DNA of 64,000 nucleotides from a virus. The position numbers were made by a program, and so were the translations under genes. The notes below the pieces were generated by a model. The model ran no database searches. It saw nothing but the letters and a program-made list of their open reading frames with translations, and had not been told where the DNA came from. Below, piece after piece: positions 2,894 through 53,867 of the stretch. The DNA lies in IMG/VR virus record IMGVR_UViG_3300032291_002550, positions 436 through 64,435 of that record. The stretch is one strand, 5' to 3'. Within the stretch, counting starts at the first letter, position 1; each line of letters starts with the position of its first letter.

Positions 2894-3856
2894 ATGGGAC
2901 GAATTTTTTTTTTAAGATGTTTTATGGCTAACCCCGTAATGAATGAAAACGGGGAGCATTTAGGCGGGTCTTTAGGATTCTTAAAGTCACTAGCTTCTTA
3001 TGTTAAAACATTCAAACCTACAAGAATTATTATTACGTTTGATGGTAAAGGAGGCTCTAAAAAAAGAAAAGAGTTATATCCTGAATATAAAGGTAATCGT
3101 TTAGCTCCTAAATCTTTTAACAGAGCTGAGATATTTGAAAATGCAGAAGATGAAAGTGCTTCAATGAAGCATCAGTTTGTAAGATTAATACAATACCTAC
3201 GTTGCTTACCGGTGTCGGTAATTACTGCAGATCATGTAGAAGCAGATGATATGGTAGCATATTTAACTACAGATATTCTTAATACAAAAAGTAATAATGT
3301 AATGATAGTTTCAGACGATAAAGATTATCTGCAACTTGTAAATGAGAAAGTTAATGTATATAGACCAGTAGAAAAGCGTTTATATAAATTAGAGGATGTT
3401 AAAGTAAGATTTGGGGTACCTGCAGAGAATTATCACCTCTATAAAGTATTTATTGGAGATGATGGCGATAATATACCCGGAGTGCCTGGAATCGGCCCTA
3501 AGACCGTAGGAAAATTGCCTATTTTACAAGAAAATAGAGTAGTTGGTTTAGAAGAATTTTTATCTTTTTGCGAAGATAAACAAGATGATAAATTATACAA
3601 AAAAATCATTAACAATAAAGACATTATAACACGTAATTATAAATTAATGCAACTACATAATGTAGATATATCAGGTACACATAAACTATTCTTAATTGAT
3701 AAGTTTAACGAACCTATATCGTTAATTAATAAAAATGAGTTTATACAAATATTAACTACTGATAAAGGATATAACTATATTAACGATCCTATTACATTTT
3801 TAAATATGTTTAATCAGTTAAATATATTTGCACTAGGAAATAATAATAATTCTTGA
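2894..3856 (+). CDS. rnh: RNase H / 5'-3' exonuclease (FEN family, T4 rnh-like). The true start is probably the ATG at 2884, which requires a frame change in a T10 tract
   Basis: IIITFDGKGGSKKRKELYPEYKGNR, the H3TH motif GDDGDNIPGVPGIGPKT, and acidic active-site residues. The ORF as called begins MGRIFFLRCF and lacks the conserved DG Asp. The upstream out-of-frame ATG at 2884 encodes MVIDGTNFFF*, which supplies it. Confidence 0.85.
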   Translation: MGRIFFLRCFMANPVMNENGEHLGGSLGFLKSLASYVKTFKPTRIIITFDGKGGSKKRKELYPEYKGNRLAPKSFNRAEIFENAEDESASMKHQFVRLIQYLRCLPVSVITADHVEADDMVAYLTTDILNTKSNNVMIVSDDKDYLQLVNEKVNVYRPVEKRLYKLEDVKVRFGVPAENYHLYKVFIGDDGDNIPGVPGIGPKTVGKLPILQENRVVGLEEFLSFCEDKQDDKLYKKIINNKDIITRNYKLMQLHNVDISGTHKLFLIDKFNEPISLINKNEFIQILTTDKGYNYINDPITFLNMFNQLNIFALGNNNNS

Positions 3857-27972: not shown

Positions 27973-28434
27973 ATGGAATTAATAAGCACGCATATATGTA
28001 AAGCATCAGATATTGGTATTCATAACAATATGTTCGGTGGTACATTAGTTGGATGGGTAGATGAAGCATCTGCAGTATATTCTGCACAAATTTGTGATAC
28101 GCCAAGAATGATTACTATTAAAGTAGATGAATTTATATTTAAGAAGCCTATAAAGTTGGGCAATATTATAAAGATTTATGGAAAAGTATCAGAATTCGGA
28201 AATACTTCTATAACATTATATATCGAAGCCAGAAAACATAATGTATATACAGGCATTCAAGAAGTCGTAACGCATACAAAAATGAAATTTGTGCGGATTG
28301 ACGATGAAGGAAATCCAATTCGTATATCTAATCGAGTAAAACAACGTTATCATAAAAGATTAAAGCAGTTCGGAAAAGGACTACTTTCTACAGAAGAACG
28401 ATTATTAGAAGAAGTTTCAGAGAAATCTAATTAA
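27973..28434 (+). CDS. Hotdog-fold acyl-CoA thioesterase
   Basis: MFGGTLVGWVDEASAVYS core typical of YbgC/4HBT thioesterases. Confidence 0.65.
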   Translation: MELISTHICKASDIGIHNNMFGGTLVGWVDEASAVYSAQICDTPRMITIKVDEFIFKKPIKLGNIIKIYGKVSEFGNTSITLYIEARKHNVYTGIQEVVTHTKMKFVRIDDEGNPIRISNRVKQRYHKRLKQFGKGLLSTEERLLEEVSEKSN

Positions 28435-28441
28435 ATGAATA

Positions 28442-28471
28442 GTAAGGAGTTAGTGAACCTAACTCCTTACA
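28442..28471 (+). other. Perfect 12-bp stem hairpin with a 6-nt loop and no T-tract
   Basis: gtaaggagttag-tgaacc-ctaactccttac. Confidence 0.6.
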
Positions 28472-28506
28472 TACTGAATATCAATACATTAAAATTATAA
28501 TAAAAT

Positions 28507-28550
28507 TTGGAAATATGAAATGTATTCCTTATCTTTAAGTATATTAAAAA
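28507..28550 (+). promoter_or_regulatory. Conserved intergenic element, copy 2
   Basis: ttggaaatatgaaatgtattccttatctttaagtatattaaaaaa. Mini-ORF MKCIPYL*. Confidence 0.6.
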
Positions 28551-28552
28551 AG

Positions 28553-28843
28553 ATGGCAAAGAAGATTAAAGAAGAAGCTATACCTAAAAAATCACTTAAA
28601 AAAGAAGTATCATATACAGATGATGAAGGAACAGATACTTGGATTTATAATGATAAAGGGCATCTTATTGAAGTAAAACTAGATTGGAATAAAGCATTTC
28701 TTAAAAAATATAAAGCAGATATCGAATATCAAGAATCATTACCTAAATCTAAAAGGCAATATCTTAATCCGGAAAATGGTAAGTTTGTTGGATATGCTCG
28801 AGCAAAAGCTTTAGGATTTTTTGAAGATGAAGATGATGAATAA
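28553..28843 (+). CDS. Hypothetical protein. Start corrected to the ATG downstream of the conserved element
   Basis: The track ORF begins inside the conserved element (MYSLSLSI). The ATG at 28553 (MAKKIKEE) follows the element, as at the other copies. Confidence 0.5.
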   Translation: MAKKIKEEAIPKKSLKKEVSYTDDEGTDTWIYNDKGHLIEVKLDWNKAFLKKYKADIEYQESLPKSKRQYLNPENGKFVGYARAKALGFFEDEDDE

Positions 28844-28862
28844 TAAAAATATTAAATAAATC

Positions 28863-29540
28863 ATGAAAAGAACATTATATTCGCGCGCGACCACAGGAAA
28901 GGTTTTAGAATGGACTATTGAAGTCGAATCTAATAAATATCGTACAATATCCGGTTATATAGACGGAGTAAAAACAACATCAGAATGGACTGTTTGCGAG
29001 CCTAAAAATATAGGAAGAGCAAATGCTACGACAGCAGAAGAACAAGCTATTAATGAATCAACAGCTATTCATCGTAAGAAAATGGAAAAGGGCGCATTTG
29101 AAAATATTAATGATATTGATACACCTATTTATTTCGAGCCAATGTTAGCTGCTAAATGGGAAGATTATAAAAATAAAATAGCATTTCCAGCATATTCTCA
29201 ACCGAAGTTAGATGGCTGTTTAAGTTATGATACGTTAATTAATACTGATAAAGGTAAGTTGATGATCGGAGATATTATTAATAATAATATCGATTGTTTA
29301 GTAGATACATATAATACCAATACCAATTTAATTGAACGTAAGAAAATTTTAAATAGAATGAAAAATGGTATTGATATTAATGAACAGCAACAAACTCAAT
29401 GGTATGAAATCGAAGTGGAAGATGGTCGAAAAATTAAAATTACCGGCAACCATCGAGTATATCTTCCGAAGTTACGGTGTTGGAGACGAGTAGATGAGTT
29501 AAATGAAAATGATATATTATTAAACTATTTTAAAAAATAA
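28863..29540 (+). CDS. lig: ATP-dependent DNA ligase, N-terminal fragment (N-extein through motif I KLDG) fused to the N-terminal half of a split intein
   Basis: Motif I PKLDG is followed directly by intein block A CLSYDTLI and block B ITGNHRVY. The ORF terminates after the intein-N region. Confidence 0.8.
   Translation: MKRTLYSRATTGKVLEWTIEVESNKYRTISGYIDGVKTTSEWTVCEPKNIGRANATTAEEQAINESTAIHRKKMEKGAFENINDIDTPIYFEPMLAAKWEDYKNKIAFPAYSQPKLDGCLSYDTLINTDKGKLMIGDIINNNIDCLVDTYNTNTNLIERKKILNRMKNGIDINEQQQTQWYEIEVEDGRKIKITGNHRVYLPKLRCWRRVDELNENDILLNYFKK
29217..29537 (+). mobile_element. Split intein N-terminal half (IntN, ~107 aa)
   Basis: Starts with Cys (CLSYDT) immediately after the ligase KLDG. 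Contains the TxxH block B (TGNH). Confidence 0.75.
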
Positions 29541-29589
29541 CCATCAACTTTTTGGTGTAATATAATAATTATAATAAATAAAGATTTAT

Positions 29590-30504
29590 ATGACACCTAT
29601 AGAAAAGTTACAACAGATAGAACTGAATACAGCAATTTTAAATTACCACGGTAATGATCATACAAGAAGAAAGTACATACGTGATATTATTACTGCTGAA
29701 TTACTTAAGTATTTAGTAATTGATAAAAAATATCCATCTAATTACATCGGAACATTGATTTCTGATATCATCGGTATACGAATAGATGCAGGATATATAA
29801 TTCATAGATGTAAAGAATTAAATATTAAAACATTTTCAATTAAAGAATCTGCTAACTTAAAATCAACAAAAGTAAGAAAGGCAGAAACATGTATAAAGAA
29901 ATATGGGTCATCAAATCCGTTAGGAAAACAAAGCCCGATATATAAAAAGCGCAATCAAACAGTCCAAGAAAAGTATGGTGTATCAAATGTATTTCAACTA
30001 GACTCTGTTAAAATGAAAACAAAAGATACGATGATAAAAAAGTATGGTGTATCAAATCCAGTATATATGGAAAACTATAAACGAAATTGTGGGCGTCGTA
30101 GTAAAATACATACTACAATAGAAACTCTCTTAATTGACTTAAATATACAATTTGAATCAGAAAAAAGAAATATGTTTTCTGCATTTAATAAATACTATAA
30201 TAAAATATATTCGCCTCAAGTAGACATCCTATTGAATGATTATAATATAGTAATAGAAATAAATGGAGATTTATGGCACGCAAATCCTAAAAAATATAAA
30301 GCAACTGACTTAATACCATTACGAATTGGACAGACTGAAGCCCAGATAATTTGGGCACGTGATGCTGCCAGAACAGAACAAATTAAATCATTCGGCTTCG
30401 AAGTAATTGAATTATGGGAGCATGATATTAAAACTAACTTAAGTATAATAAAAGAACAGTTATATGAAAAAATATATAAAAATAACAAAAATTACGAAGA
30501 TTGA
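29590..30504 (+). CDS. Homing endonuclease (HEG2) between the split-intein halves: KYGVSN repeats plus a C-terminal PD-(D/E)xK nuclease
   Basis: Repeats KKYGSSNP / EKYGVSNV / KKYGVSNP. C-terminal DILLNDYNIVIEINGDLWHANP resembles the nuclease core of HEG1 and HEG3. The 3' end overlaps the IntC ORF. Confidence 0.7.
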   Translation: MTPIEKLQQIELNTAILNYHGNDHTRRKYIRDIITAELLKYLVIDKKYPSNYIGTLISDIIGIRIDAGYIIHRCKELNIKTFSIKESANLKSTKVRKAETCIKKYGSSNPLGKQSPIYKKRNQTVQEKYGVSNVFQLDSVKMKTKDTMIKKYGVSNPVYMENYKRNCGRRSKIHTTIETLLIDLNIQFESEKRNMFSAFNKYYNKIYSPQVDILLNDYNIVIEINGDLWHANPKKYKATDLIPLRIGQTEAQIIWARDAARTEQIKSFGFEVIELWEHDIKTNLSIIKEQLYEKIYKNNKNYED

Positions 30505-30577
30505 TCCTGAAGTTAAATATGATCTTGAAATACAAGATAACCACAACTATTTTGCAAACGATATACTAGTGCATAAT
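30464..30577 (+). mobile_element. Split intein C-terminal half (IntC, 38 aa)
   Basis: Ends in block G NDILVHN, followed by the Cys+1 of the extein. Confidence 0.75.
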
Positions 30578-31315
30578 TGTCGTGCCATTGTTAAGAGTGA
30601 CGGTATGTGGACACGAAATGGTAAGCCTATTATATCTGCTCCGCATATATTTGAATGTCTTAAGCCGTTATTTGAAATTAATCCAGATCTTATTTTTGAC
30701 GGGGAACTTTATGCTGATAAATTTGCTAACGATTTTAATGCTATATGTTCATTAGTAAAGAAAACTAAACCAACAGCCGAAGATATTAACGAATCAAAGG
30801 AAAAGATTCAGTATCATGTATATGATTTACCGAGCTTTAATGCCACATTTGTTCCAAGATTCCAACATCTTCATAAAATGCTTACAAATTATCACCCGTC
30901 TATTGTTGTTGTACAAACAGAACAAGTAGACAATTTTAATGATGTAGATGCGTTCTACGAAGATTATATTTCTTTGGGATATGAAGGTCAAATGATACGA
31001 TTAGACGCTCAATATGAACATAAAAGAACAAAGTCTTTATTAAAGAATAAGTCCTTTATAGATGAAGAATATACGATCATTGATATTGAAGAAGGTAATG
31101 GAAACAAAGCCGGAATGGTAGGTTCTTTTGTATTTAAGAATGCTAATGGCAAAATATTCAATGCTTCTCCTAAGTTTAACTGGGGCATATGCCAACGAAT
31201 GTTAAACGATAGAGAATTATTAATCGGAAAAGAAGCTACGATTAAGTATTTTAATTTAACACCAGATAATATACCTAGATTTCCGTACGTAATAGCGATA
31301 CGAGATTACGAATAA
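30464..31315 (+). CDS. lig: Split intein C-terminal half fused to the DNA ligase C-terminal fragment (C-extein)
   Basis: After ...ILVHN, the extein CRAIVKSDG completes motif I KxDGxR. It is followed by motif III LIFDGELYA, motif IV EGQMIRLD and motif V LLKNKS. Confidence 0.8.
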   Translation: MKKYIKITKITKIDPEVKYDLEIQDNHNYFANDILVHNCRAIVKSDGMWTRNGKPIISAPHIFECLKPLFEINPDLIFDGELYADKFANDFNAICSLVKKTKPTAEDINESKEKIQYHVYDLPSFNATFVPRFQHLHKMLTNYHPSIVVVQTEQVDNFNDVDAFYEDYISLGYEGQMIRLDAQYEHKRTKSLLKNKSFIDEEYTIIDIEEGNGNKAGMVGSFVFKNANGKIFNASPKFNWGICQRMLNDRELLIGKEATIKYFNLTPDNIPRFPYVIAIRDYE

Positions 31316-31332
31316 AAAAACTTAAAAAAAGA

Positions 31333-31378
31333 TTAGGAAATATGAAATGTTTTCCTTATCTTTAAGTATATTAAAAAT
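31333..31378 (+). promoter_or_regulatory. Conserved intergenic element, copy 3
   Basis: ttaggaaatatgaaatgttttccttatctttaagtatattaaaaatt. Confidence 0.6.
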
Positions 31379-31389
31379 TAAAATTAGTT

Positions 31390-31587
31390 ATGATGAAATT
31401 TTTCAGTTGGATTAAAAACGACCCTTTCCTTAAAGGAATTCTACAAATAGCTTGTAATATTACTTTACTAGAATATGTTATTTTACCGATGCTTAATATG
31501 TCCAGTACAATATTATTCTTTCTAGGTATGTTATTAATATATCTCTTAATTGTAGTTAATATTCGAATCTTTAAAAAATTATACTAA
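31390..31587 (+). CDS. Small membrane protein
   Basis: 65 aa, hydrophobic. Confidence 0.4.
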   Translation: MMKFFSWIKNDPFLKGILQIACNITLLEYVILPMLNMSSTILFFLGMLLIYLLIVVNIRIFKKLY

Positions 31588-31601
31588 AAATAAAAACAAA
31601 A

Positions 31602-32429
31602 ATGAAAAATAAAATAAAATCAGTGTTAATGGTACTGGGTGCCATTTCACTACTTAGCTTAGGAAGTTGTTCACGTATTGACGCTGGACATGTAGGTATG
31701 AAAGTTTCTTACTTTGGAGATGACAAAGGAGTAAATGACATTGTGTATGTTACGGGGTGGACATTTTACAATCCTCTTACATCAACAGTTATTGAGTGGC
31801 CAACATTCGTTAGACACGTTGAGTATGTAGGAGAGCATGGGTTCGTTGTAAATTCAAAAGACGGAAGCGAATTTGCCGTAAATCCTATTATCAATTATAG
31901 TATCGTGCCGGATAAAGCTCCAGATATCTATAGAAAATATCGTAAAGATTTAGGTGATCTCGAAATAGCATTTTTAAAGACAACAGTCCAGGACGTATTT
32001 CGTGTCGCTGCTAATGAATTTAATGCAGATAGTTTAATAAGTAATAGACAAAGATTCGAGACGTTAGTAATGAAGGACTTACATAGTCGATTAACTTCGG
32101 AAGGATTCATGGTTCAGCAATTAACAAGTAACTTAGTTTATCCAGAATCATTTAAGAATGCGATTAATGCTAAGAATAATGCAGTACAGCAAGCTCTTCA
32201 GGCCGAGAATCAAGTAAAAACGGCAGAAGCTCAAGCTAAAATTAAAGTGGCTCAAGCAGACGGTGAAGCTCAAGCAATGTTAACGACCGCTCGCGCTGAA
32301 GCAGAAGCTAATAGATTAAGACAAACAACCTTAACAGAGAATTTATTACAGCAACAGTTTATTAATAAATGGGATGGTGTATTGCCTGTATATGGCCAAG
32401 TACCAACCTTATTTAAATCTATTCAGTAA
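31602..32429 (+). CDS. SPFH/band-7 (prohibitin/HflC-like) lipoprotein
   Basis: Lipobox LSLGSC. SPFH core with a C-terminal Ala/Gln-rich coiled coil (AEAQAKIKVAQADGEAQAMLTTARAEAEANRL). Confidence 0.7.
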   Translation: MKNKIKSVLMVLGAISLLSLGSCSRIDAGHVGMKVSYFGDDKGVNDIVYVTGWTFYNPLTSTVIEWPTFVRHVEYVGEHGFVVNSKDGSEFAVNPIINYSIVPDKAPDIYRKYRKDLGDLEIAFLKTTVQDVFRVAANEFNADSLISNRQRFETLVMKDLHSRLTSEGFMVQQLTSNLVYPESFKNAINAKNNAVQQALQAENQVKTAEAQAKIKVAQADGEAQAMLTTARAEAEANRLRQTTLTENLLQQQFINKWDGVLPVYGQVPTLFKSIQ

Positions 32430-32440
32430 TAAAACGGATA

Positions 32441-32513
32441 ACTCAGATGGCGTAATTGGTAACGCGCCCGTCCTGGAGATGGGAAGATATAGGTTCGAAT
32501 CCTATTCTGAGTT
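32441..32513 (+). tRNA. tRNA (73 nt). Anticodon loop CCUGGAG, so Pro(UGG) in the canonical register, but position 33 is C
   Basis: Hand-folded. Acceptor actcaga/tctgagt, D-stem gcgt/acgc, anticodon stem cccgt/atggg, T-arm atagg-ttcgaat-cctat. No encoded CCA. Confidence 0.6.
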
Positions 32514-32547
32514 CAAAAAAAAAATAACTTGCAAGTTATTTTAAATA

Positions 32548-32668
32548 GTCAGGTGGCGGAAAGGTATTAGTAGTGGTGAACGAAAATATCGTGGTAGACG
32601 CTAGTTAACAGACAGAGAGATAAAAGGAATGGTTTACTCTCATACAGGTTCGAATCCTGTCCTGACTA
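32548..32668 (+). ncRNA. Atypical tRNA-like element (121 nt) with a canonical acceptor stem and T-arm but a non-tRNA interior
   Basis: Acceptor agtcagg/cctgact and T-arm acagg-ttcgaat-cctgt are perfect. I could not fold the ~85-nt interior into D or anticodon arms. Confidence 0.35.
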
Positions 32669-32682
32669 CTAAAAAGAAAGTT

Positions 32683-32838
32683 ATGTCATCAGAAACAAAA
32701 AAAAGAAAGTCAGATAAAAAATTACATTGGGGTCGAGGTAGACATTTCATGAAATGGGTAGGTAAGGGCATAAAAGGACTTACTTATTTTACATCGTCTC
32801 AAAGACGAATAAATAATAAAATTGACTTAGAAGATTAA
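32683..32838 (+). CDS. Small basic protein (51 aa). Track ORF 32629..32838 trimmed to the aagttATG start
   Basis: MSSETKKRKSDKKLHWGRGRHF..., preceded by the conserved aagttATG context. The N-terminal part of the track ORF overlaps the tRNA-like element. Confidence 0.3.
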   Translation: MSSETKKRKSDKKLHWGRGRHFMKWVGKGIKGLTYFTSSQRRINNKIDLED

Positions 32839-32843
32839 AATAT

Positions 32844-32935
32844 AGTCAGGGGGTAATATAGGCAGCTACCCATCCGGAGTGGGGTGAGTTAAGAAGTGGG
32901 TTTCTTAAATGCAGGTTCGAATCCTGCCCTGACTG
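32844..32935 (+). ncRNA. Atypical tRNA-like element (92 nt), paralogous to the 32548..32668 element
   Basis: Same acceptor agtcagg/cctgact, and T-arm gcagg-ttcgaat-cctgc. The interior holds a 7-bp hairpin ttaagaa-gtgggt-ttcttaa and a possible tccggag loop, but no clean cloverleaf. Confidence 0.35.
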
Positions 32936-32949
32936 CAAAAATTAAAAGT

Positions 32950-33525
32950 ATGAAAGTAATATTCTTAGATATAGACGGCGTTCTTAATTGTCAAGATGCA
33001 TATCATAATAATGAATGTAAATATGTTGATTTTACATTAAATGATGTTGAAGACTTTTATCAGACATTTTGTTCTTGGAGTAAAATGTGGTTGAATAAAT
33101 TAATTGATGAGACTGGAGCTAAAATAGTAATATCTTCTACTTGGAGACATTCAGGTATTGATTTCATGAAAAAAGTTTGGGAATTAGAAGAAATGAGTGG
33201 CGAGATAATTGGGTTGACTCCTCACTTAAAAAGAGCCGATAACTATACTATACCTCGTGGATGTGAAATTGATTTTTACTTAAACAATACATTAAACTTT
33301 AGCCATATCAATTGGGATAAAACTATACAACAAGAATATATGTATAAATCAGGTATTGAAAACTATATTATAATTGATGATGATTCTGATATGTTGTATG
33401 GTCAAAGACATCATTTTATAAATGTATTACCTTCTCCAAGAAACACAAAAGGATTTAATGAAGAACATTATAAACTTGGAATGGAGATGTTAAGTAAAAC
33501 AGTAATTGATTTAAATTATGAATAA
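32950..33525 (+). CDS. HAD-superfamily hydrolase (nucleotidase-like). Start corrected from the track ORF
   Basis: HAD motif I FLDIDGVLN and ISSTWR. The track ORF's N-terminus overlaps the tRNA-like element. The ATG at 32950 has an aaagtATG context. Confidence 0.6.
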   Translation: MKVIFLDIDGVLNCQDAYHNNECKYVDFTLNDVEDFYQTFCSWSKMWLNKLIDETGAKIVISSTWRHSGIDFMKKVWELEEMSGEIIGLTPHLKRADNYTIPRGCEIDFYLNNTLNFSHINWDKTIQQEYMYKSGIENYIIIDDDSDMLYGQRHHFINVLPSPRNTKGFNEEHYKLGMEMLSKTVIDLNYE

Positions 33526-40508: not shown

Positions 40509-42386
40509 ATGAAATACTTTTTTACTCTCGGGCTGATCTTACTAACCTCTGTAATTTTCGCTCAAACATGCCCTACACCTAACGGCAACTCAATCATTAT
40601 CAAACCAACATATTCAGTTGGAAGCTCAATAGCAAATGAGTCAAATTCCATTCTTTGCTATAACAACACATCAGCAACAAAAATTACTGCGTTACAGTTT
40701 AGAATAACGTATGATACCGTTGCATTTACAAACCCTTCAGTTAGTTTAACATTAACAGACACTAGTAATCATTATCTTCAATATTATGTTGATAATGGTA
40801 ATATTACTATTACAACAGTGTATGACGGACAAGATGCTAATTACACTTATCCTTCAGGAGAATTAATCAAAGTTAATTTTAAACATTCTAATCCTTCTAC
40901 ATTCCAATACTTAACTGGGATTCAACCTTTAGCATTTAATTTATCTTATCCTACATTAGCTTCAACGAGCACCGGTAAAGATACAGTATTAACTAAATTT
41001 AATGCTGGTGGACAATTTATCAGACCTAGCATTCAATTTTCTGGAACATTTAAAAACGTAACAGGAACATATTCTAAAAAGATATTAGTTGGATTCTGGA
41101 AGCAACCTAAATCAGGTGGTAATTGGACATTAGTAGATGTTGATACAACAGATAAAGATGGTAAATTCTTATTCAAACCAATTATAGATACTACATATTG
41201 GACTTGTAAAATCGAAGTTAAAGGAGATACATTAAAATATGGTAATGTAGTTTCTACAGCAGATGCTCAGAAAGTAAATAGATTTGTATTAGGAATTGAA
41301 TCTCCAAAAGATTTTGATTTTTATACAGCAGATCCTAATAACTCAGGAAATATTTCAATTTCCGATGTATATACTATCTTTAATAGAATTGCAGGAAGAT
41401 TTAATAGTTTTTCAGTGCCTGATGTAAGATTCTTTACTGAATCAGAATATCTTGCAATCAAAGGAGAACCAACTACTAATTACACTCAAATGATTCCTGG
41501 CGTAACTAATTATTCATATACAATAATAACAGGAGTTGATTCTATAACAGTATATGTTTTAGTAACAGGAGATGCAAATGAAACAGGATATCAAATGGCT
41601 AAATTATCTCCTATAAAAATAACTAATCCATTAAATTCTCCAAACTTTATTATAGATCAAACTACAGAATACTATGCTAATTTAGATGAAATGGAAATTA
41701 AATTACCGACATTAAATGTTGAAGAAGGTAATTTAGTAAATATTCCAATACAAGTATTAACTAATGGTCAATCTTTAGGAGCTGTACAATTATCAATGAA
41801 ATATGACAGCGATTTATTAGAATTCAAAGGAGTAGCTTCAAAAGGAGCTACTTCTAACTGGATGTCATTTATAAATGCTAATAATAATGAAGTTGAATGG
41901 GGCGGTGTAGATATGAGTGAACAAAATAAAATTATTGACGGTCAAGAAGTAGCTGTATTACAGTTTATTGCTAGAAGACCTAAAATGGATTGGTCAGCAT
42001 CACCATTATATGTAACTCGTAAGTTTGTTGGAAATGCTGTAGCTAAAGATTTAAGCATTAGACCTACAGACGGAAGAATTGAAGTTCTTAAGACAGTTTT
42101 AAAGTCTGAAAAATTAAAAGATATTAATATCTTAATTTATCCTAATCCAACATCAGGTATTGTATCAGTTCAGTTTAGTGTACCTGAAAATAACTATACA
42201 TCAGTATACTTTATTGATTTAAATGGAAACAAAGTAGCTAATATCGTTAACGAGAAAATGCCAAAAGGAGAATACAGATATACAGCTAATCTTTCATCAT
42301 TACCTACTAATGCATATTTAGCAGTTATGGAATGTGACGGTAAAGTAATTGCAAGTACGAAAGTATTAAATGGGACAGTACTATAA
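40509..42386 (+). CDS. Secreted protein with a type IX secretion system (T9SS) C-terminal sorting domain
   Basis: Flavobacterial signal peptide (...VIFAQ). C-terminal ~85 aa INILIYPNPTSGIVSVQF...VYFIDLNGNKVANIV...KGEYRYTANLSSLPTNAYLAV matches the Por_Secre_tail (type A CTD) pattern. Confidence 0.7.
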   Translation: MKYFFTLGLILLTSVIFAQTCPTPNGNSIIIKPTYSVGSSIANESNSILCYNNTSATKITALQFRITYDTVAFTNPSVSLTLTDTSNHYLQYYVDNGNITITTVYDGQDANYTYPSGELIKVNFKHSNPSTFQYLTGIQPLAFNLSYPTLASTSTGKDTVLTKFNAGGQFIRPSIQFSGTFKNVTGTYSKKILVGFWKQPKSGGNWTLVDVDTTDKDGKFLFKPIIDTTYWTCKIEVKGDTLKYGNVVSTADAQKVNRFVLGIESPKDFDFYTADPNNSGNISISDVYTIFNRIAGRFNSFSVPDVRFFTESEYLAIKGEPTTNYTQMIPGVTNYSYTIITGVDSITVYVLVTGDANETGYQMAKLSPIKITNPLNSPNFIIDQTTEYYANLDEMEIKLPTLNVEEGNLVNIPIQVLTNGQSLGAVQLSMKYDSDLLEFKGVASKGATSNWMSFINANNNEVEWGGVDMSEQNKIIDGQEVAVLQFIARRPKMDWSASPLYVTRKFVGNAVAKDLSIRPTDGRIEVLKTVLKSEKLKDINILIYPNPTSGIVSVQFSVPENNYTSVYFIDLNGNKVANIVNEKMPKGEYRYTANLSSLPTNAYLAVMECDGKVIASTKVLNGTVL

Positions 42387-51399: not shown

Positions 51400-52425
51400 A
51401 TGGAATCATCAAATAATTTTATCAAATGTGCTATATGCGATTCATTAATGCAGTCAAGAATTAATGGGTCGCACTTAAAAACACATAACATATCTATAAC
51501 AGAATATTTGATTAAGTATCCGTTTGCAGAAACGGGGTCTTATATATCATCAACTTTTAAATGTCAGATCTGTAACACTGATATTGAAAATAAAAGTTCA
51601 GTTAAGATAAAACATTTAAAAGATCATGGTTATTCTATAGATGAATATAATATACAGTACTTAAAACGTCTTTGCCAATGTGGATGTAATGGCATAGCAA
51701 CATATTCATATGCTAGACATAAGTATAACAAGTATATTGAAGGTCATGACATCACATCATGGAATACCGGATTAACTAAAGAAACACATGACTCTTTAAA
51801 GAGGGTATCAGAAGCTAGAAAAAGAACAAAAGGTACATATACAGATGAACAAAAATTAAAAATCTCTGAGAAAACTAAATTATCATGGAAAGAACATCCA
51901 GAATCTAAATTAAAGATGGTGAAATCTTATAAAGAGACTATGATTAAAAAATATGGAGTAGATAATTTTAGTAAAACACCAGAATTTCTAGAAAAGTTTA
52001 AAAATACATCTTTAAACCGATATGGAGTAGAATATCCTAATCAAGACCCTGAAATATATGAACGTTCATGTAAAGGCAGAAAATATTATAAAGATTATAT
52101 ATTACCATCAGGTAAAAAGATACGAATTCAAGGATATGAGGGATATGCTTTAGATATACTATTAAATTCATATCATGAAGATGATATATTAACAAAAAAA
52201 TCTGATATGCCAATAGTATGGTATGAATTTGAAAATAAAAGGCGCAGATATTACCCAGATATTTACATACCATCACAAAATCTAATAATTGAAGTTAAAT
52301 CTACATACACATATAATTTAGAGACTGCTCAGATACATTCTAAAATAAACTCTTTGAAAGATATGGGATTTAATACTAATATTTGGATTATCGATAAAAA
52401 AATAATATATTCAATTATAAAATAA
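51400..52425 (+). CDS. Homing endonuclease (HEG3): zinc-finger-like N-terminus, KYGVxN repeats and a C-terminal PD-(D/E)xK nuclease
   Basis: CAICD...HLKTH and CQICN...HLKDH pairs. Repeats KKYGVDNFSKTPEF / NRYGVEYPNQDPE like HEG2. C-terminal YYPDIYIPSQNLIIEVKSTY (PD...EVK). Confidence 0.65.
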   Translation: MESSNNFIKCAICDSLMQSRINGSHLKTHNISITEYLIKYPFAETGSYISSTFKCQICNTDIENKSSVKIKHLKDHGYSIDEYNIQYLKRLCQCGCNGIATYSYARHKYNKYIEGHDITSWNTGLTKETHDSLKRVSEARKRTKGTYTDEQKLKISEKTKLSWKEHPESKLKMVKSYKETMIKKYGVDNFSKTPEFLEKFKNTSLNRYGVEYPNQDPEIYERSCKGRKYYKDYILPSGKKIRIQGYEGYALDILLNSYHEDDILTKKSDMPIVWYEFENKRRRYYPDIYIPSQNLIIEVKSTYTYNLETAQIHSKINSLKDMGFNTNIWIIDKKIIYSIIK

Positions 52426-52541: not shown

Positions 52542-53867
52542 ATGGCAAGAGAAATTATCCTAGGCACTTGTCATGTATTTGATTATGTGATTGTCGGTGG
52601 CGCATTAAAACATCCAGAAGAAGGTCAAATAATTGACTTATCTCAATCAGTTAAGAAAGATACTGGTATTGATGCTAATGTTAAAATTTATCCTGTATCT
52701 GGTTATGGTACTCAAGAATTAGTACGTCATTTAATCTCTACAGAATCTCCGGATGTATTATTACATTTTACAGACCCTAGATATTGGACATGGTTGTATC
52801 AAATGGAAAATGAAATACGTCAAAGAATTCCAATTACTTACTTAAATATTTGGGACTGTCCACCACCCCCAATGTATAATAAACCTTATTATAAATCATG
52901 TGATTTATTAATGAATATTTCGAAGCAAACTTACGGAATTGTTCATAAGGTATTAGAAGGAGAAAATTATGAAGATTGGCAAATTACCTATGTTCCGCAC
53001 GGAATAAACGACTCACATTTCTTTCCAATATCAAAAGACTCAGACACATATAAAAGTGTCGTAGACTTAAGAAAATCATTCTTAAAGGGTAAGAAAAATA
53101 AAGATGTAATTCCTCAATTTGTATTTTTATTTAATTCTAGAAACATAAGAAGAAAACAAACAGCAGATATTATATTAGCATATAAAATGTTCTGCGATAA
53201 ACTTTCGAAATCAGAAGCAATGAAATGCGTTCTTGTTCTTCATACTCAACCAGTTGATGAAAATGGAACAAACTTATTAGAGGTTATTGAAACTTTATGT
53301 CCAGAATATAACGTTACTTTTACAGATAAATCATTTAATGTTCATGAAATGAATATACTTTATAACTCTTCAGATGTTTTAATTAATATTTCAAGTAATG
53401 AAGGATGGGGATTATCTGTAACAGAAGCTATAATGACTGGTAAAAATGTTATCGTAAATATGACTGGCGGTCTTCAAGATCAAGTTGGATTAATGAAAGA
53501 CGATGGCACATTAGTTACTAAAGAAGATTATAAAGATAAAGAATGGCATTCAAATCATGATGGAAGATATAACAAATGGGGTTCTTGGGCAATACCAATT
53601 ATTCCGAGCAATCGTTCTATTCAAGGGTCTATTCCAACTCCTTATATATTTGACGATCGTGTAAAGATTGAAGACTTAATGAATGCTATGCTGAAATGGT
53701 ATAATACTAATGAAGAAGAAAGAATTCATTCAGGAATAAAAGGTCGTCAATATCTTATTGATAACAGAATGAATGCAAAAGGAATGTGTGAGAATGTTAT
53801 AAAAGACATTACAACTTGCTTAGAAAATTTCGAGCCTAAAGAAAGATATTCAATTATTAAATTATAA
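52542..53867 (+). CDS. Glycosyltransferase (GT-B, GT4-like)
   Basis: C-terminal NISSNEGWGLSVTEAIMTGKNVIV matches the GT-B E-x7-E / EGFGL-type motif. 441 aa. Confidence 0.65.
   Translation: MAREIILGTCHVFDYVIVGGALKHPEEGQIIDLSQSVKKDTGIDANVKIYPVSGYGTQELVRHLISTESPDVLLHFTDPRYWTWLYQMENEIRQRIPITYLNIWDCPPPPMYNKPYYKSCDLLMNISKQTYGIVHKVLEGENYEDWQITYVPHGINDSHFFPISKDSDTYKSVVDLRKSFLKGKKNKDVIPQFVFLFNSRNIRRKQTADIILAYKMFCDKLSKSEAMKCVLVLHTQPVDENGTNLLEVIETLCPEYNVTFTDKSFNVHEMNILYNSSDVLINISSNEGWGLSVTEAIMTGKNVIVNMTGGLQDQVGLMKDDGTLVTKEDYKDKEWHSNHDGRYNKWGSWAIPIIPSNRSIQGSIPTPYIFDDRVKIEDLMNAMLKWYNTNEEERIHSGIKGRQYLIDNRMNAKGMCENVIKDITTCLENFEPKERYSIIKL

Follow-up and report, generated by a model that had tools for sequence, protein, structure and literature searches.

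A fractured ATP-dependent DNA ligase gene lies in the window analysed here, a 64,000-nucleotide (nt) stretch of viral DNA (positions 436 to 64,435 of IMG/VR virus record IMGVR_UViG_3300032291_002550), where two open reading frames (ORFs) that each encode part of the ligase and one half of an intein are separated by a free-standing endonuclease gene. We hold it to be very likely that a selfish 1361-bp cassette has lodged in motif I of the ligase, that the ligase would be restored by protein trans-splicing, and that the cassette would be spread by homing; activity, the cleavage site and regulation enter this reading as predictions. All three ORFs are on the + strand, in three different frames, and coordinates throughout are those of the whole window (Table 1).

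Table 1. Parts of the fractured ligase locus. IntN and IntC, N- and C-terminal intein halves; UTR, untranslated region.
Feature	Position	Strand	Description
N-terminal ORF	28863-29540	+	225 aa: ligase residues 1-118, then IntN and stop; ends ...NYFKK
N-extein	28863-29216	+	ligase residues 1-118, ending ...SQPKLDG; first four motif I residues, including adenylation lysine K115
K-L-D-G codons, AAGTTAGATGG	29205-29215	+	directly 5' of the intein; presumed left half of the homing site; reverse complement fits CCATCWAVYTT
Cassette (IntN-endonuclease-IntC)	29217-30577	+	inserted element of 1361 bp
IntN	29217-29540	+	107 aa and stop; Cys1 (CLSYDTLI), block B T-G-N-H
Inverted motif, CCATCAACTTT	29541-29551	+	borders the IntN stop, at the 5' margin of the endonuclease cassette
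RNA hairpin	29546-29609	+	endonuclease 5' UTR and first codons; AUG 29590-29592 inside the stem
Homing endonuclease gene	29590-30504	+	304 aa, own ATG, 49 nt past the N-terminal ORF stop; 41-nt overlap with the C-terminal ORF
C-terminal ORF	30464-31315	+	283 aa: 38-aa IntC, then the remaining ligase
IntC	30464-30577	+	38 aa, ending ...FANDILVHN; first 41 nt overlap the endonuclease 3' end in another frame
C-extein	30578-31315	+	+1 Cys; CR completes motif I; FDGEL (III), EGQMIR (IV), LLKNK (V), OB domain, RFPYV (VI)

Removal of the cassette leaves a complete ligase gene. The N-terminal ORF runs through ...AFPAYSQPKLDG into CLSYDTLINTDKG (CLSYDTLI), continues to ...KITGNH... and closes with KIKITGNHRVYLPKLRCWRRVDELNENDILLNYFKK and a stop codon; its extein matches the ATP-dependent DNA ligase family phrog_114 (residues 11-119, E 9e-14) and is 94% identical to the N-terminus of an intein-less ligase, P0011. 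The C-terminal ORF opens with MKKYIKITKITKIDPEVKYDLEIQDNHNYFANDILVHN, followed by CRAIVKSDGMWTRNG (CRAIVKSDG), and is recognized by the profiles PF01068 (E 9e-13), PF14743 (E 2e-11), phrog_114 (E 2e-56) and NF006592 (120.8 bits). When 28863-29216 is joined to 30578-31315 the product is a gene of 1092 nt encoding 363 aa, in which motif I is restored as KLDG/CR (the slash marks the junction) and the features of an ATP-dependent ligase, namely KLDGCR, FDGEL, EGQMIR, LLKNK, an OB domain and the matches to PF01068 and PF14743, are all present. P0011, which was found on contigs L003-L005, supplies the corresponding empty site: it has the same 363 aa and 1092 nt, aligns with the spliced window gene without a gap at 90% DNA and 92% protein identity, and on L004 is embedded in the same neighbourhood as in the window (Metallophos, 4HBT, ligase, 65-aa ORF, Band_7). 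At the junction the window reads KLDG/CRAIVKSDG and the empty allele KLDGIRCIIKKNG, the +1 Cys standing where the empty allele has Ile or Val; the intein-less allele of L004 (5466-6557 of that contig) includes CCAAAGTTGGACGGAATTAGATGT in its predicted target region. Differences between the window and P0011 are concentrated at this point, amounting to 17 of 42 nt around the junction versus 91 of 1050 elsewhere (Fisher p = 8e-8). The spliced ligase is also colinear, across the junction, with the solved structures of Lig E (4d05, E 8e-17), the PBCV-1 ligase (1p8l and 2q2t) and T4 ligase (6dt1). The equal length of P0011, together with this colinearity, shows that the two ORFs are the halves of one ligase. 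The break follows Gly118 and precedes the x of KxDGxR, which puts it three residues past the adenylation lysine.

The sequences that border the break are recognizable as the halves of an intein. Residues 119-200 of the N-terminal ORF score 41.3 bits with TIGR01445 intein_Nterm (cut-off 24.5 bits) and residues 19-39 of the C-terminal ORF score 26.8 bits with TIGR01443 intein_Cterm (cut-off 15.6 bits); with Pfam PF14890, whose gathering score is 35.8, each half taken alone remains below threshold (28.7 and 24.7 bits). The residues of class 1 splicing are all in place, comprising C119 (Cys1), T194-G-N-H197, H37-N38 of IntC and the +1 Cys. C1, T194, H197 and R208 are invariant in 31 diverged homologues, and HN with a +1 Cys or Ser is kept in every locus that has an IntC. 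When IntN and IntC are fused and compared by sequence with solved inteins, the best match is NrdJ-1 (8ubs, E 1e-9), and gp41-1 (6qaz, E 3e-6), Spl DnaX (7cfv), the DnaB mini-intein and Npu DnaE are matched as well. The alignment with NrdJ-1 is full-length, the break between IntN and IntC coincides with the NrdJ-1 split, and the C-terminal block HNFFANDILVH of NrdJ-1 appears as HNYFANDILVHN in the window. The position of the split and the block HN(F/Y)FANDILVHN are thus common to NrdJ-1, gp41-1 and the ligase intein, whereas the hosts of the first two are ribonucleotide reductase and helicase rather than ligase, overall identity is about 30%, and the window has Cys at +1. NrdJ-1 and gp41-1 are reportedly fast trans-splicers. 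Both were found in the original survey of fractured genes (Dassa, London, Stoddard, Schueler-Furman & Pietrokovski 2009, NAR 37:2560; PMC2677866). A preliminary description of this DNA had read the first ORF as ligase up to motif I followed by an intein N-terminus and a stop, and the second as a 38-aa intein C-terminus followed by the ligase sequence that completes motif I and carries motifs III-V, with the insertion inside the adenylation-lysine motif itself. The profile matches, the alignment with the PBCV-1 ligase (1p8l) and the agreement of the two halves with NrdJ-1, gp41-1 and the curated intein profiles bear out each of these assignments.

We infer, with good support, that the ligase is reconstituted by protein trans-splicing. 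In the cassette, an EDxHD endonuclease gene breaks the coding region of a class-1 intein at the canonical position, between blocks B and F, and supplies the stop codon of the N-half and the start codon of the C-half. Two polypeptides would be made, one of 225 aa (ligase residues 1-118 and IntN) and one of 283 aa (IntC and ligase residues 119-363); IntN and IntC would associate to form a HINT fold, and splicing through Cys1, T-x-x-H, the terminal His-Asn and the +1 Cys would release a 363-aa ligase with KLDGCR as motif I. It could be argued that the ligase fragments assemble non-covalently, the intein halves acting as affinity domains and no peptide bond being formed, comparable to NrdA of phage Aeh1, which is split by mobE. 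Endonuclease-split genes that work as two peptides have a precedent (Friedrich et al. 2007, cited in PMC10448857; PMC3045599), and splicing in the window is itself a prediction. It should be emphasized, however, that the window retains every residue of the splicing chemistry, that Cys1, the Thr and His of block B and R208 do not vary among the diverged homologues, and that the conservation of HN and the +1 Cys or Ser in all IntC loci would be unexpected for a docking domain. In addition, the closest characterized relatives are split inteins from the fractured-gene survey, and the break lies within motif I, so close to the adenylation lysine that a chain end left unligated would occupy the active site. 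A ligase that works as two chains is thus improbable.

The ORF between the two halves had been proposed to be an independent homing endonuclease gene with its own start, and this view is upheld by its ATG, its EDxHD residues and its Vsr-like fold. The protein consists of an N-terminal helical region, which probably binds DNA, and a C-terminal Vsr-like/EDxHD nuclease. Pfam identifies DUF7487 at residues 77-166 (KYGxSN repeats) and gives a weak DUF559/Vsr signal at the C-terminus, the PHROG families related to the ORF carry the label homing endonuclease, and several of the 35 aligned homologues, which are mostly about 300 aa, have been named 'very-short-patch-repair endonuclease' by JGI. Four residues are invariant in the 36-sequence alignment, D212 (30223-30225), E223 (30256-30258), H230 (30277-30279) and D258 (30361-30363), and match the composite EDxHD motif by which the I-Bth0305I family is defined. 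An AlphaFold (AF2) model built on the homologue alignment (pLDDT 93.5) retrieved, in a Foldseek search, both Vsr (1cw0, E 5e-4) and the catalytic domain of I-Bth0305I (3r3p, E 2e-3, TMt 0.81), each with probability 1.00. Sequence and fold place the middle ORF among the Vsr-like/EDxHD homing endonucleases, with cleavage as its predicted activity. Its predicted nuclease domain superposes on those of I-Bth0305I (3r3p; Taylor et al. 2011, PMC3239194) and Escherichia coli Vsr (1cw0) with the catalytic E/D/H/D set, and it has in common with I-Bth0305I the two-part build of an N-terminal DNA-binding region and a C-terminal nuclease. In contrast, I-Bth0305I is intron-encoded in recA whereas the window enzyme is free-standing inside a split intein, has no detectable sequence similarity to 3r3p, and begins with DUF7487 instead of NUMOD3.

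Endonuclease-like genes are also found elsewhere in the window. A free-standing ORF of 334 aa (1812-2816, + strand) combines NUMOD3 with a Vsr-like REase_MTES_1575 domain, is 29% identical to the ligase-locus endonuclease in its nuclease domain (E 1e-6), and is flanked by the gene for a full-length GroEL-type chaperonin (28-1644, + strand) and a 5'-3' exonuclease gene (2894-3856). A 341-aa ORF (51400-52425, + strand), upstream of a glycosyltransferase gene (52542-53867), matches DUF7487 (E 5e-45), has KYGxSN-type repeats in common with the ligase-locus endonuclease and is probably a third endonuclease-like gene.

The start of the endonuclease gene is enclosed in a predicted RNA hairpin with a minimum free energy of -13.6 kcal/mol (z -2.67), a stability reached by 1 of 200 shuffled sequences, and its inverted repeat (GGTGTAATATAA/TTATATGACACC) is 92% complementary. 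The region around the start of IntC (30420-30500) showed no structure (z -0.04). Most of the related loci have a comparable start-sequestering hairpin, with a spacer of 18-67 nt, and in most of them the endonuclease gene overlaps the IntC ORF by 4-53 nt. Burial of the AUG in the hairpin would probably damp translation of the endonuclease. A scan for sigma-70 promoters and terminators was uninformative on transcription units, as the 19 sites found compare with 22.9 expected from shuffled sequences.

All parts of the locus appear to be maintained. Pairwise comparison of related loci gave dN/dS ranges of 0.04-0.26 (IntN), 0.05-0.24 (IntC), 0.07-0.17 (endonuclease gene) and 0.09-0.27 (exteins), values well below 1 that indicate purifying selection on each part in these relatives. 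The pattern of identity between loci, in turn, is that of a mobile element. Loci L082, L083 and L084 agree with the window at 100% over the 1361 bp of the cassette, but at 98.0% in the N-extein, 97.2% in the C-extein and 96-98.5% in neighbouring genes; had the cassette diverged at the mismatch rate of the exteins, about 35 differences should separate its copies in the window lineage, and none was seen. Comparison of L080 with the window gives 99.0-100% identity in the cassette and 93.5% in the N-extein. In other lineages the disparity is pronounced: L029 and L031 have cassettes that are 99.7% identical and exteins that are 76% and 68% identical, and the corresponding values are 98.1% and 73% for L032 and L042, and 97.9% and 70-73% for L036 and L043. 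The drop in identity falls at the intein boundaries, past co-conversion tracts of about 17-24 nt. The contrast between cassette and exteins, combined with the existence of empty-site alleles, constitutes a classic homing footprint, and the same contrast identifies the whole IntN-endonuclease-IntC block as the mobile unit. In a mixed infection the endonuclease would cut intein-less ligase alleles at or near the motif-I DNA, repair of the double-strand break would copy the entire unit into the cut allele, and the resident allele would be immune as the insertion splits the site.

The degeneration of some related loci, in which the endonuclease gene is fragmented (L039/L040) or truncated (L052/L053) or the locus is frameshifted (L067), could be taken to mean that the window ligase was likewise destroyed by insertion of the endonuclease gene and that its intein-like flanks are decaying remnants. 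In contrast with this proposal, the three ORFs of the window are intact with all catalytic residues, the exteins show no frameshift and reach 90-98% identity with ligases from close relatives, and dN/dS in the related loci is well below 1 for exteins, intein halves and endonuclease gene alike. A dead gene is, therefore, an unlikely explanation, somewhat more so than a two-chain ligase, and the fractured ligase gene is intact and very probably functional and mobile, with splicing and cleavage as its predicted activities. Least credible of all is that the locus is an assembly chimera, or contains an intron removed at the RNA level so that a contiguous ligase is translated, for although EDxHD endonucleases also occur in group I introns (such as I-Bth0305I in recA), the insert is flanked by in-frame, conserved intein halves that exceed curated thresholds, and at least six samples (ERZ21845800, ERR2848539, SRR16126862/68/69 and JGI 3300045481) independently gave assemblies with the identical three-ORF layout, which is hence no artefact of assembly. 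An intron was dismissed because no Rfam family, group I and II introns included, was matched in 28500-31700 even at E <= 1.

Several observations weigh against the interpretation of the locus as a trans-spliced, homing ligase gene. The single-sequence AF2 model of the fused IntN and IntC is unusable (pLDDT 47.6), and the HINT fold thus rests on sequence evidence; splicing of the ligase intein, similarly, is deduced from sequence and not from the protein level. A phmmer search of the endonuclease against PDB sequences gave no significant match, which is why the enzyme was compared by fold. The T4-type late-promoter box TATAAATA does not occur exactly in the window spacer (29541-29589), which reads ...GTAATATAATAATTATAATAAATAAAG..., the closest sequence being TATAATAAATA; the box was present in 10 of 16 UTRs in the 2009 survey (PMC2677866), and hence is not obligatory. 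Finally, the window represents 64 kb of a genome of about 197 kb, the remainder of which could hold a second, intact ligase, and the enzyme cannot therefore be claimed to be essential.

The window allele belongs to a large family of alleles at K-x-D-G. A search with the N-terminal ORF recovered 1192 proteins; among the best 120 clusters, 58 contain ORFs of about 215-239 aa in which K-x-D-G is followed directly by C and then L, V or I, opening an IntN that is 41-97% identical to that of the window, and another 58 contain intein-less ligases of 357-385 aa with KLDG(I/V)RC. A pattern scan of IMG/VR gave 70 loci, which were sorted by BLAST, and 25 distinct loci with a DNA ligase C-extein use the same insertion point as the window. 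Within this tally, 19 loci combine the split intein with a full-length homologue of the window endonuclease gene, two (L010 and L014) have the split intein without an endonuclease gene, one (L039) has a fragmented endonuclease gene, and three (L018, L019 and L048) have an unbroken intein in one ORF; a further unbroken intein, in L025, fell below the IntN E-value filter and was left out of the tally. In all four unbroken inteins the insert is a LAGLIDADG domain. These contiguous inteins occupy the same point (QPKLDG/C...HN/CR) and have splicing blocks homologous to IntN and IntC, but form one ORF of 729-759 aa with an in-frame LAGLIDADG domain instead of a separate EDxHD gene. Thus, every stage of the homing cycle is visible at motif I: empty, contiguous with LAGLIDADG, split with an EDxHD gene, split without one, and decayed. 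An unbroken LAGLIDADG intein was also observed in a LigD-like protein of 1149 aa with LigD phosphoesterase and primase-polymerase domains (L076).

The intein and endonuclease families extend to hosts other than DNA ligase (L047, L074/L075, L050-L068, L071, L072 and L077). The same intein family stands directly after K-x-D-G in an RNA ligase (L047, PF09414) and, at a different junction (KTDEVR/C rather than K-x-D-G), in the RNA ligases of L074/L075 (PF09414). Both families also occur in a group of hosts with the arrangement LEKLDG/.../SMIQVYWDW, which are probably RNA ligases. It looks as if motif I is a landing site common to much of the nucleotidyltransferase superfamily. In four loci (L059, L060, L063 and L064) a second IntN-like segment and an endonuclease-like ORF were observed about 5 kb downstream of the first split intein, and a 6-kb stretch of these phages may hold two fractured genes; at the corresponding downstream site of L061 there is only an IntN-like hit.

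The 2009 survey had already reported the three-part arrangement, the endonuclease family and DNA ligase as a host, and the window is a further example. Dassa et al. (PMC2677866) described 26-27 fractured loci of eight enzyme types in Global Ocean Sampling (GOS) reads, with one DNA ligase locus, from Lake Gatun, placed DNA ligase among the new intein hosts, and set out the spacer, hairpin and overlap as well as the family of Vsr-like endonucleases. The window has the same-strand split gene, the in-frame IntN and IntC, the spacer, the overlap and the 5' UTR hairpin of such loci, and lacks TATAAATA. It resembles the published loci in its three-part same-strand layout, phage origin, DNA ligase host, Vsr-like endonuclease and hairpin over the endonuclease start, as well as in the dimensions of its spacer (49 nt versus 27-51), overlap (41 nt versus 6-69 bp) and IntC (38 aa versus 33-54); IntN has 107 aa, versus 88-105 in those loci. 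The published ligase locus, by its description, is a partial assembly of reads that is Felix O1-like and has a 5'-3' exonuclease downstream. The window locus, in contrast, is complete, lies on a contig of at least 64 kb, has a 65-aa ORF and Band_7 as neighbours, and is without the exact TATAAATA; beside the related ligase loci, a 5'-3' exonuclease was detected in a single weak upstream hit (the duplicate loci L039/L040). A further difference concerns mobility, as in the model of Dassa et al. the endonuclease invades the intein, whereas in the window comparisons intein and endonuclease move as one unit.

The novelty claimed in the preliminary description is correspondingly reduced. A ligase host was not new, DNA ligase being among the eight hosts named in 2009 (PMC2677866), and the allele is common, as the cluster and locus counts above show. 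The statement that fractured genes were known only from metagenomic reads does not hold either, because complete genomes of cultured, T4-like Salmonella phages of the genus Gelderlandvirus (S16, STP4-a and CF-SP2) contain one, although it went unrecognized: uvsW is annotated there only as separate genes, uvsW_1, a hypothetical protein and uvsW_2 (in CF-SP2, locus L079, OM912978.1 155759-158488). uvsW_1 ends in an IntN (CFDGDT...TGNH), uvsW_2 begins with an IntC (...HNYFANGALAHN followed by C), and a 291-aa ORF overlaps the start of IntC. The uvsW split intein is related to that of the window (IntN 34% identity, E 6e-14) and likewise has an ORF between its halves; the host, however, is a helicase, no relationship between the middle ORF and the window endonuclease is detectable, and the inverted host-site motif discussed below is absent. 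Searches of GenBank phages with IntN (tblastn) produced uvsW, UvsX and terminase inteins and no ligase, and in the literature we found no paper characterizing a ligase split intein.

The description of the window as a complete phage locus is right in that the locus is complete and intact, but it is itself metagenomic. Megablast of 28000-32500 against GenBank phages gave no match, and hence no close sequenced relative, and the window proteins were found only on metagenome contigs, from which it follows that the window is a long metagenomic contig and not a cultured phage. A scan of GTDB genomes with the N-terminal ORF alignment returned eight weak hits in metagenome-assembled genomes, none in cultured organisms and no clue to the host. 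A protein of 625 aa encoded at 40509-42386 (+ strand) has a cohesin domain and a type IX secretion C-terminal sorting domain; these domains, together with a G+C content of 29.5%, point to a Bacteroidota host.

Immediately behind the IntN stop, the endonuclease cassette begins with a motif that resembles the presumed left half of the homing site in inverted orientation. The consensus CCATCWAAYTT corresponds, in reverse complement, to the K-L-D-G codons (AAR-YTN-GAY-GG), and it is found at the same place in 22 ligase-type loci (among loci L006-L044), the background being 0.003 per 120 nt; a 23rd match, in L051, is about 950 nt off-position and was set aside. The motif agrees with the local site at 7-11 of 11 nt, and at 8 or more in 21 of the 22 loci. 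The inverted copy extends to 15-18 nt in a manner that tracks the host subfamily: QPKLDG ligases have the reverse complement of CAA-CCN-AAR (Q-P-K codons) as the extension, SRKIDG ligases that of AGA-AAA (R-K) and LEKLDG hosts that of GAA-AAG (E-K). Duplexes between motif and site are predicted at -16.9 kcal/mol for cognate pairs, -15.1 within a subfamily and -12.3 with other subfamilies, against -7.1 after shuffling. Taken on its own, the window gives a match of 8/11 (ungapped 9/14, p ~0.5), which is not significant, and the similarity is believable only because of its conservation across the family; a repeat search of the window did not report the inverted repeat of site and motif. The feature was not found in hosts without K-x-D-G, S16 uvsW included.

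Tentatively, the inverted copy may be a putative mimic of the homing site that the endonuclease binds without cutting, thereby repressing its own gene, or one arm of a long-range mRNA helix. We regard the operator-type mimic as the most attractive reading and the helix as second. An operator of comparable kind is known for I-TevI. Alternatively, the helix would compete with the hairpin that sequesters the AUG, and so couple translation of the endonuclease to that of the ligase N-half; compensatory changes between motif and local site (GAC with CCGTC), however, are seen in only 2 of 8 loci, and this weak compensation does not favour a strictly RNA-pairing explanation. A separate proposal, that loss of the pseudo-palindrome CCAAAGTTGG confers immunity on the intein-bearing allele, was rejected since several such alleles keep CCAAAGTTGG.

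Other features were observed in the vicinity of the ligase gene. The interval between the 4HBT and ligase genes (28435-28862) is a variable cassette region, with gene shuffling beside the endonuclease-bearing gene: it holds one ORF of 107 aa in the window, ORFs of 107, 68 and 95 aa in L080, two of 95 aa in L082, and 93, 96, 96 and 220 aa in the intein-less L004. Downstream of the ligase, a normal tRNA-Pro (32441-32514) is accompanied by a tRNA-like sequence of 92-93 nt (32844-32936, + strand) to which ARAGORN assigns no anticodon and which scores 25.1 bits with the Rfam tRNA family, against a gathering score of 29. Two ORFs nearby (32629-32838 and 32896-33525) contain GSNP(V/A)LT, the translation of a tRNA T-arm, and further tRNA remnants may therefore lie near 32629-33525.

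As material for the study of fractured genes, the window locus offers a complete and intact ligase example with known neighbours, empty-site alleles in the same lineage and dozens of diverged relatives. The putative split intein, which has Gly at -1 and Cys at +1 and is naturally related to NrdJ-1, is a candidate for protein engineering, and the unannotated fractured uvsW of cultured S16-like phages could serve as a genetic system for trans-splicing and homing. The inverted site-mimic motif may bear on how endonucleases of this kind are restrained. This study also contributes clean data on mobility, in which split intein and free-standing endonuclease gene behave as one unit whose boundaries lie exactly at the ends of the intein.

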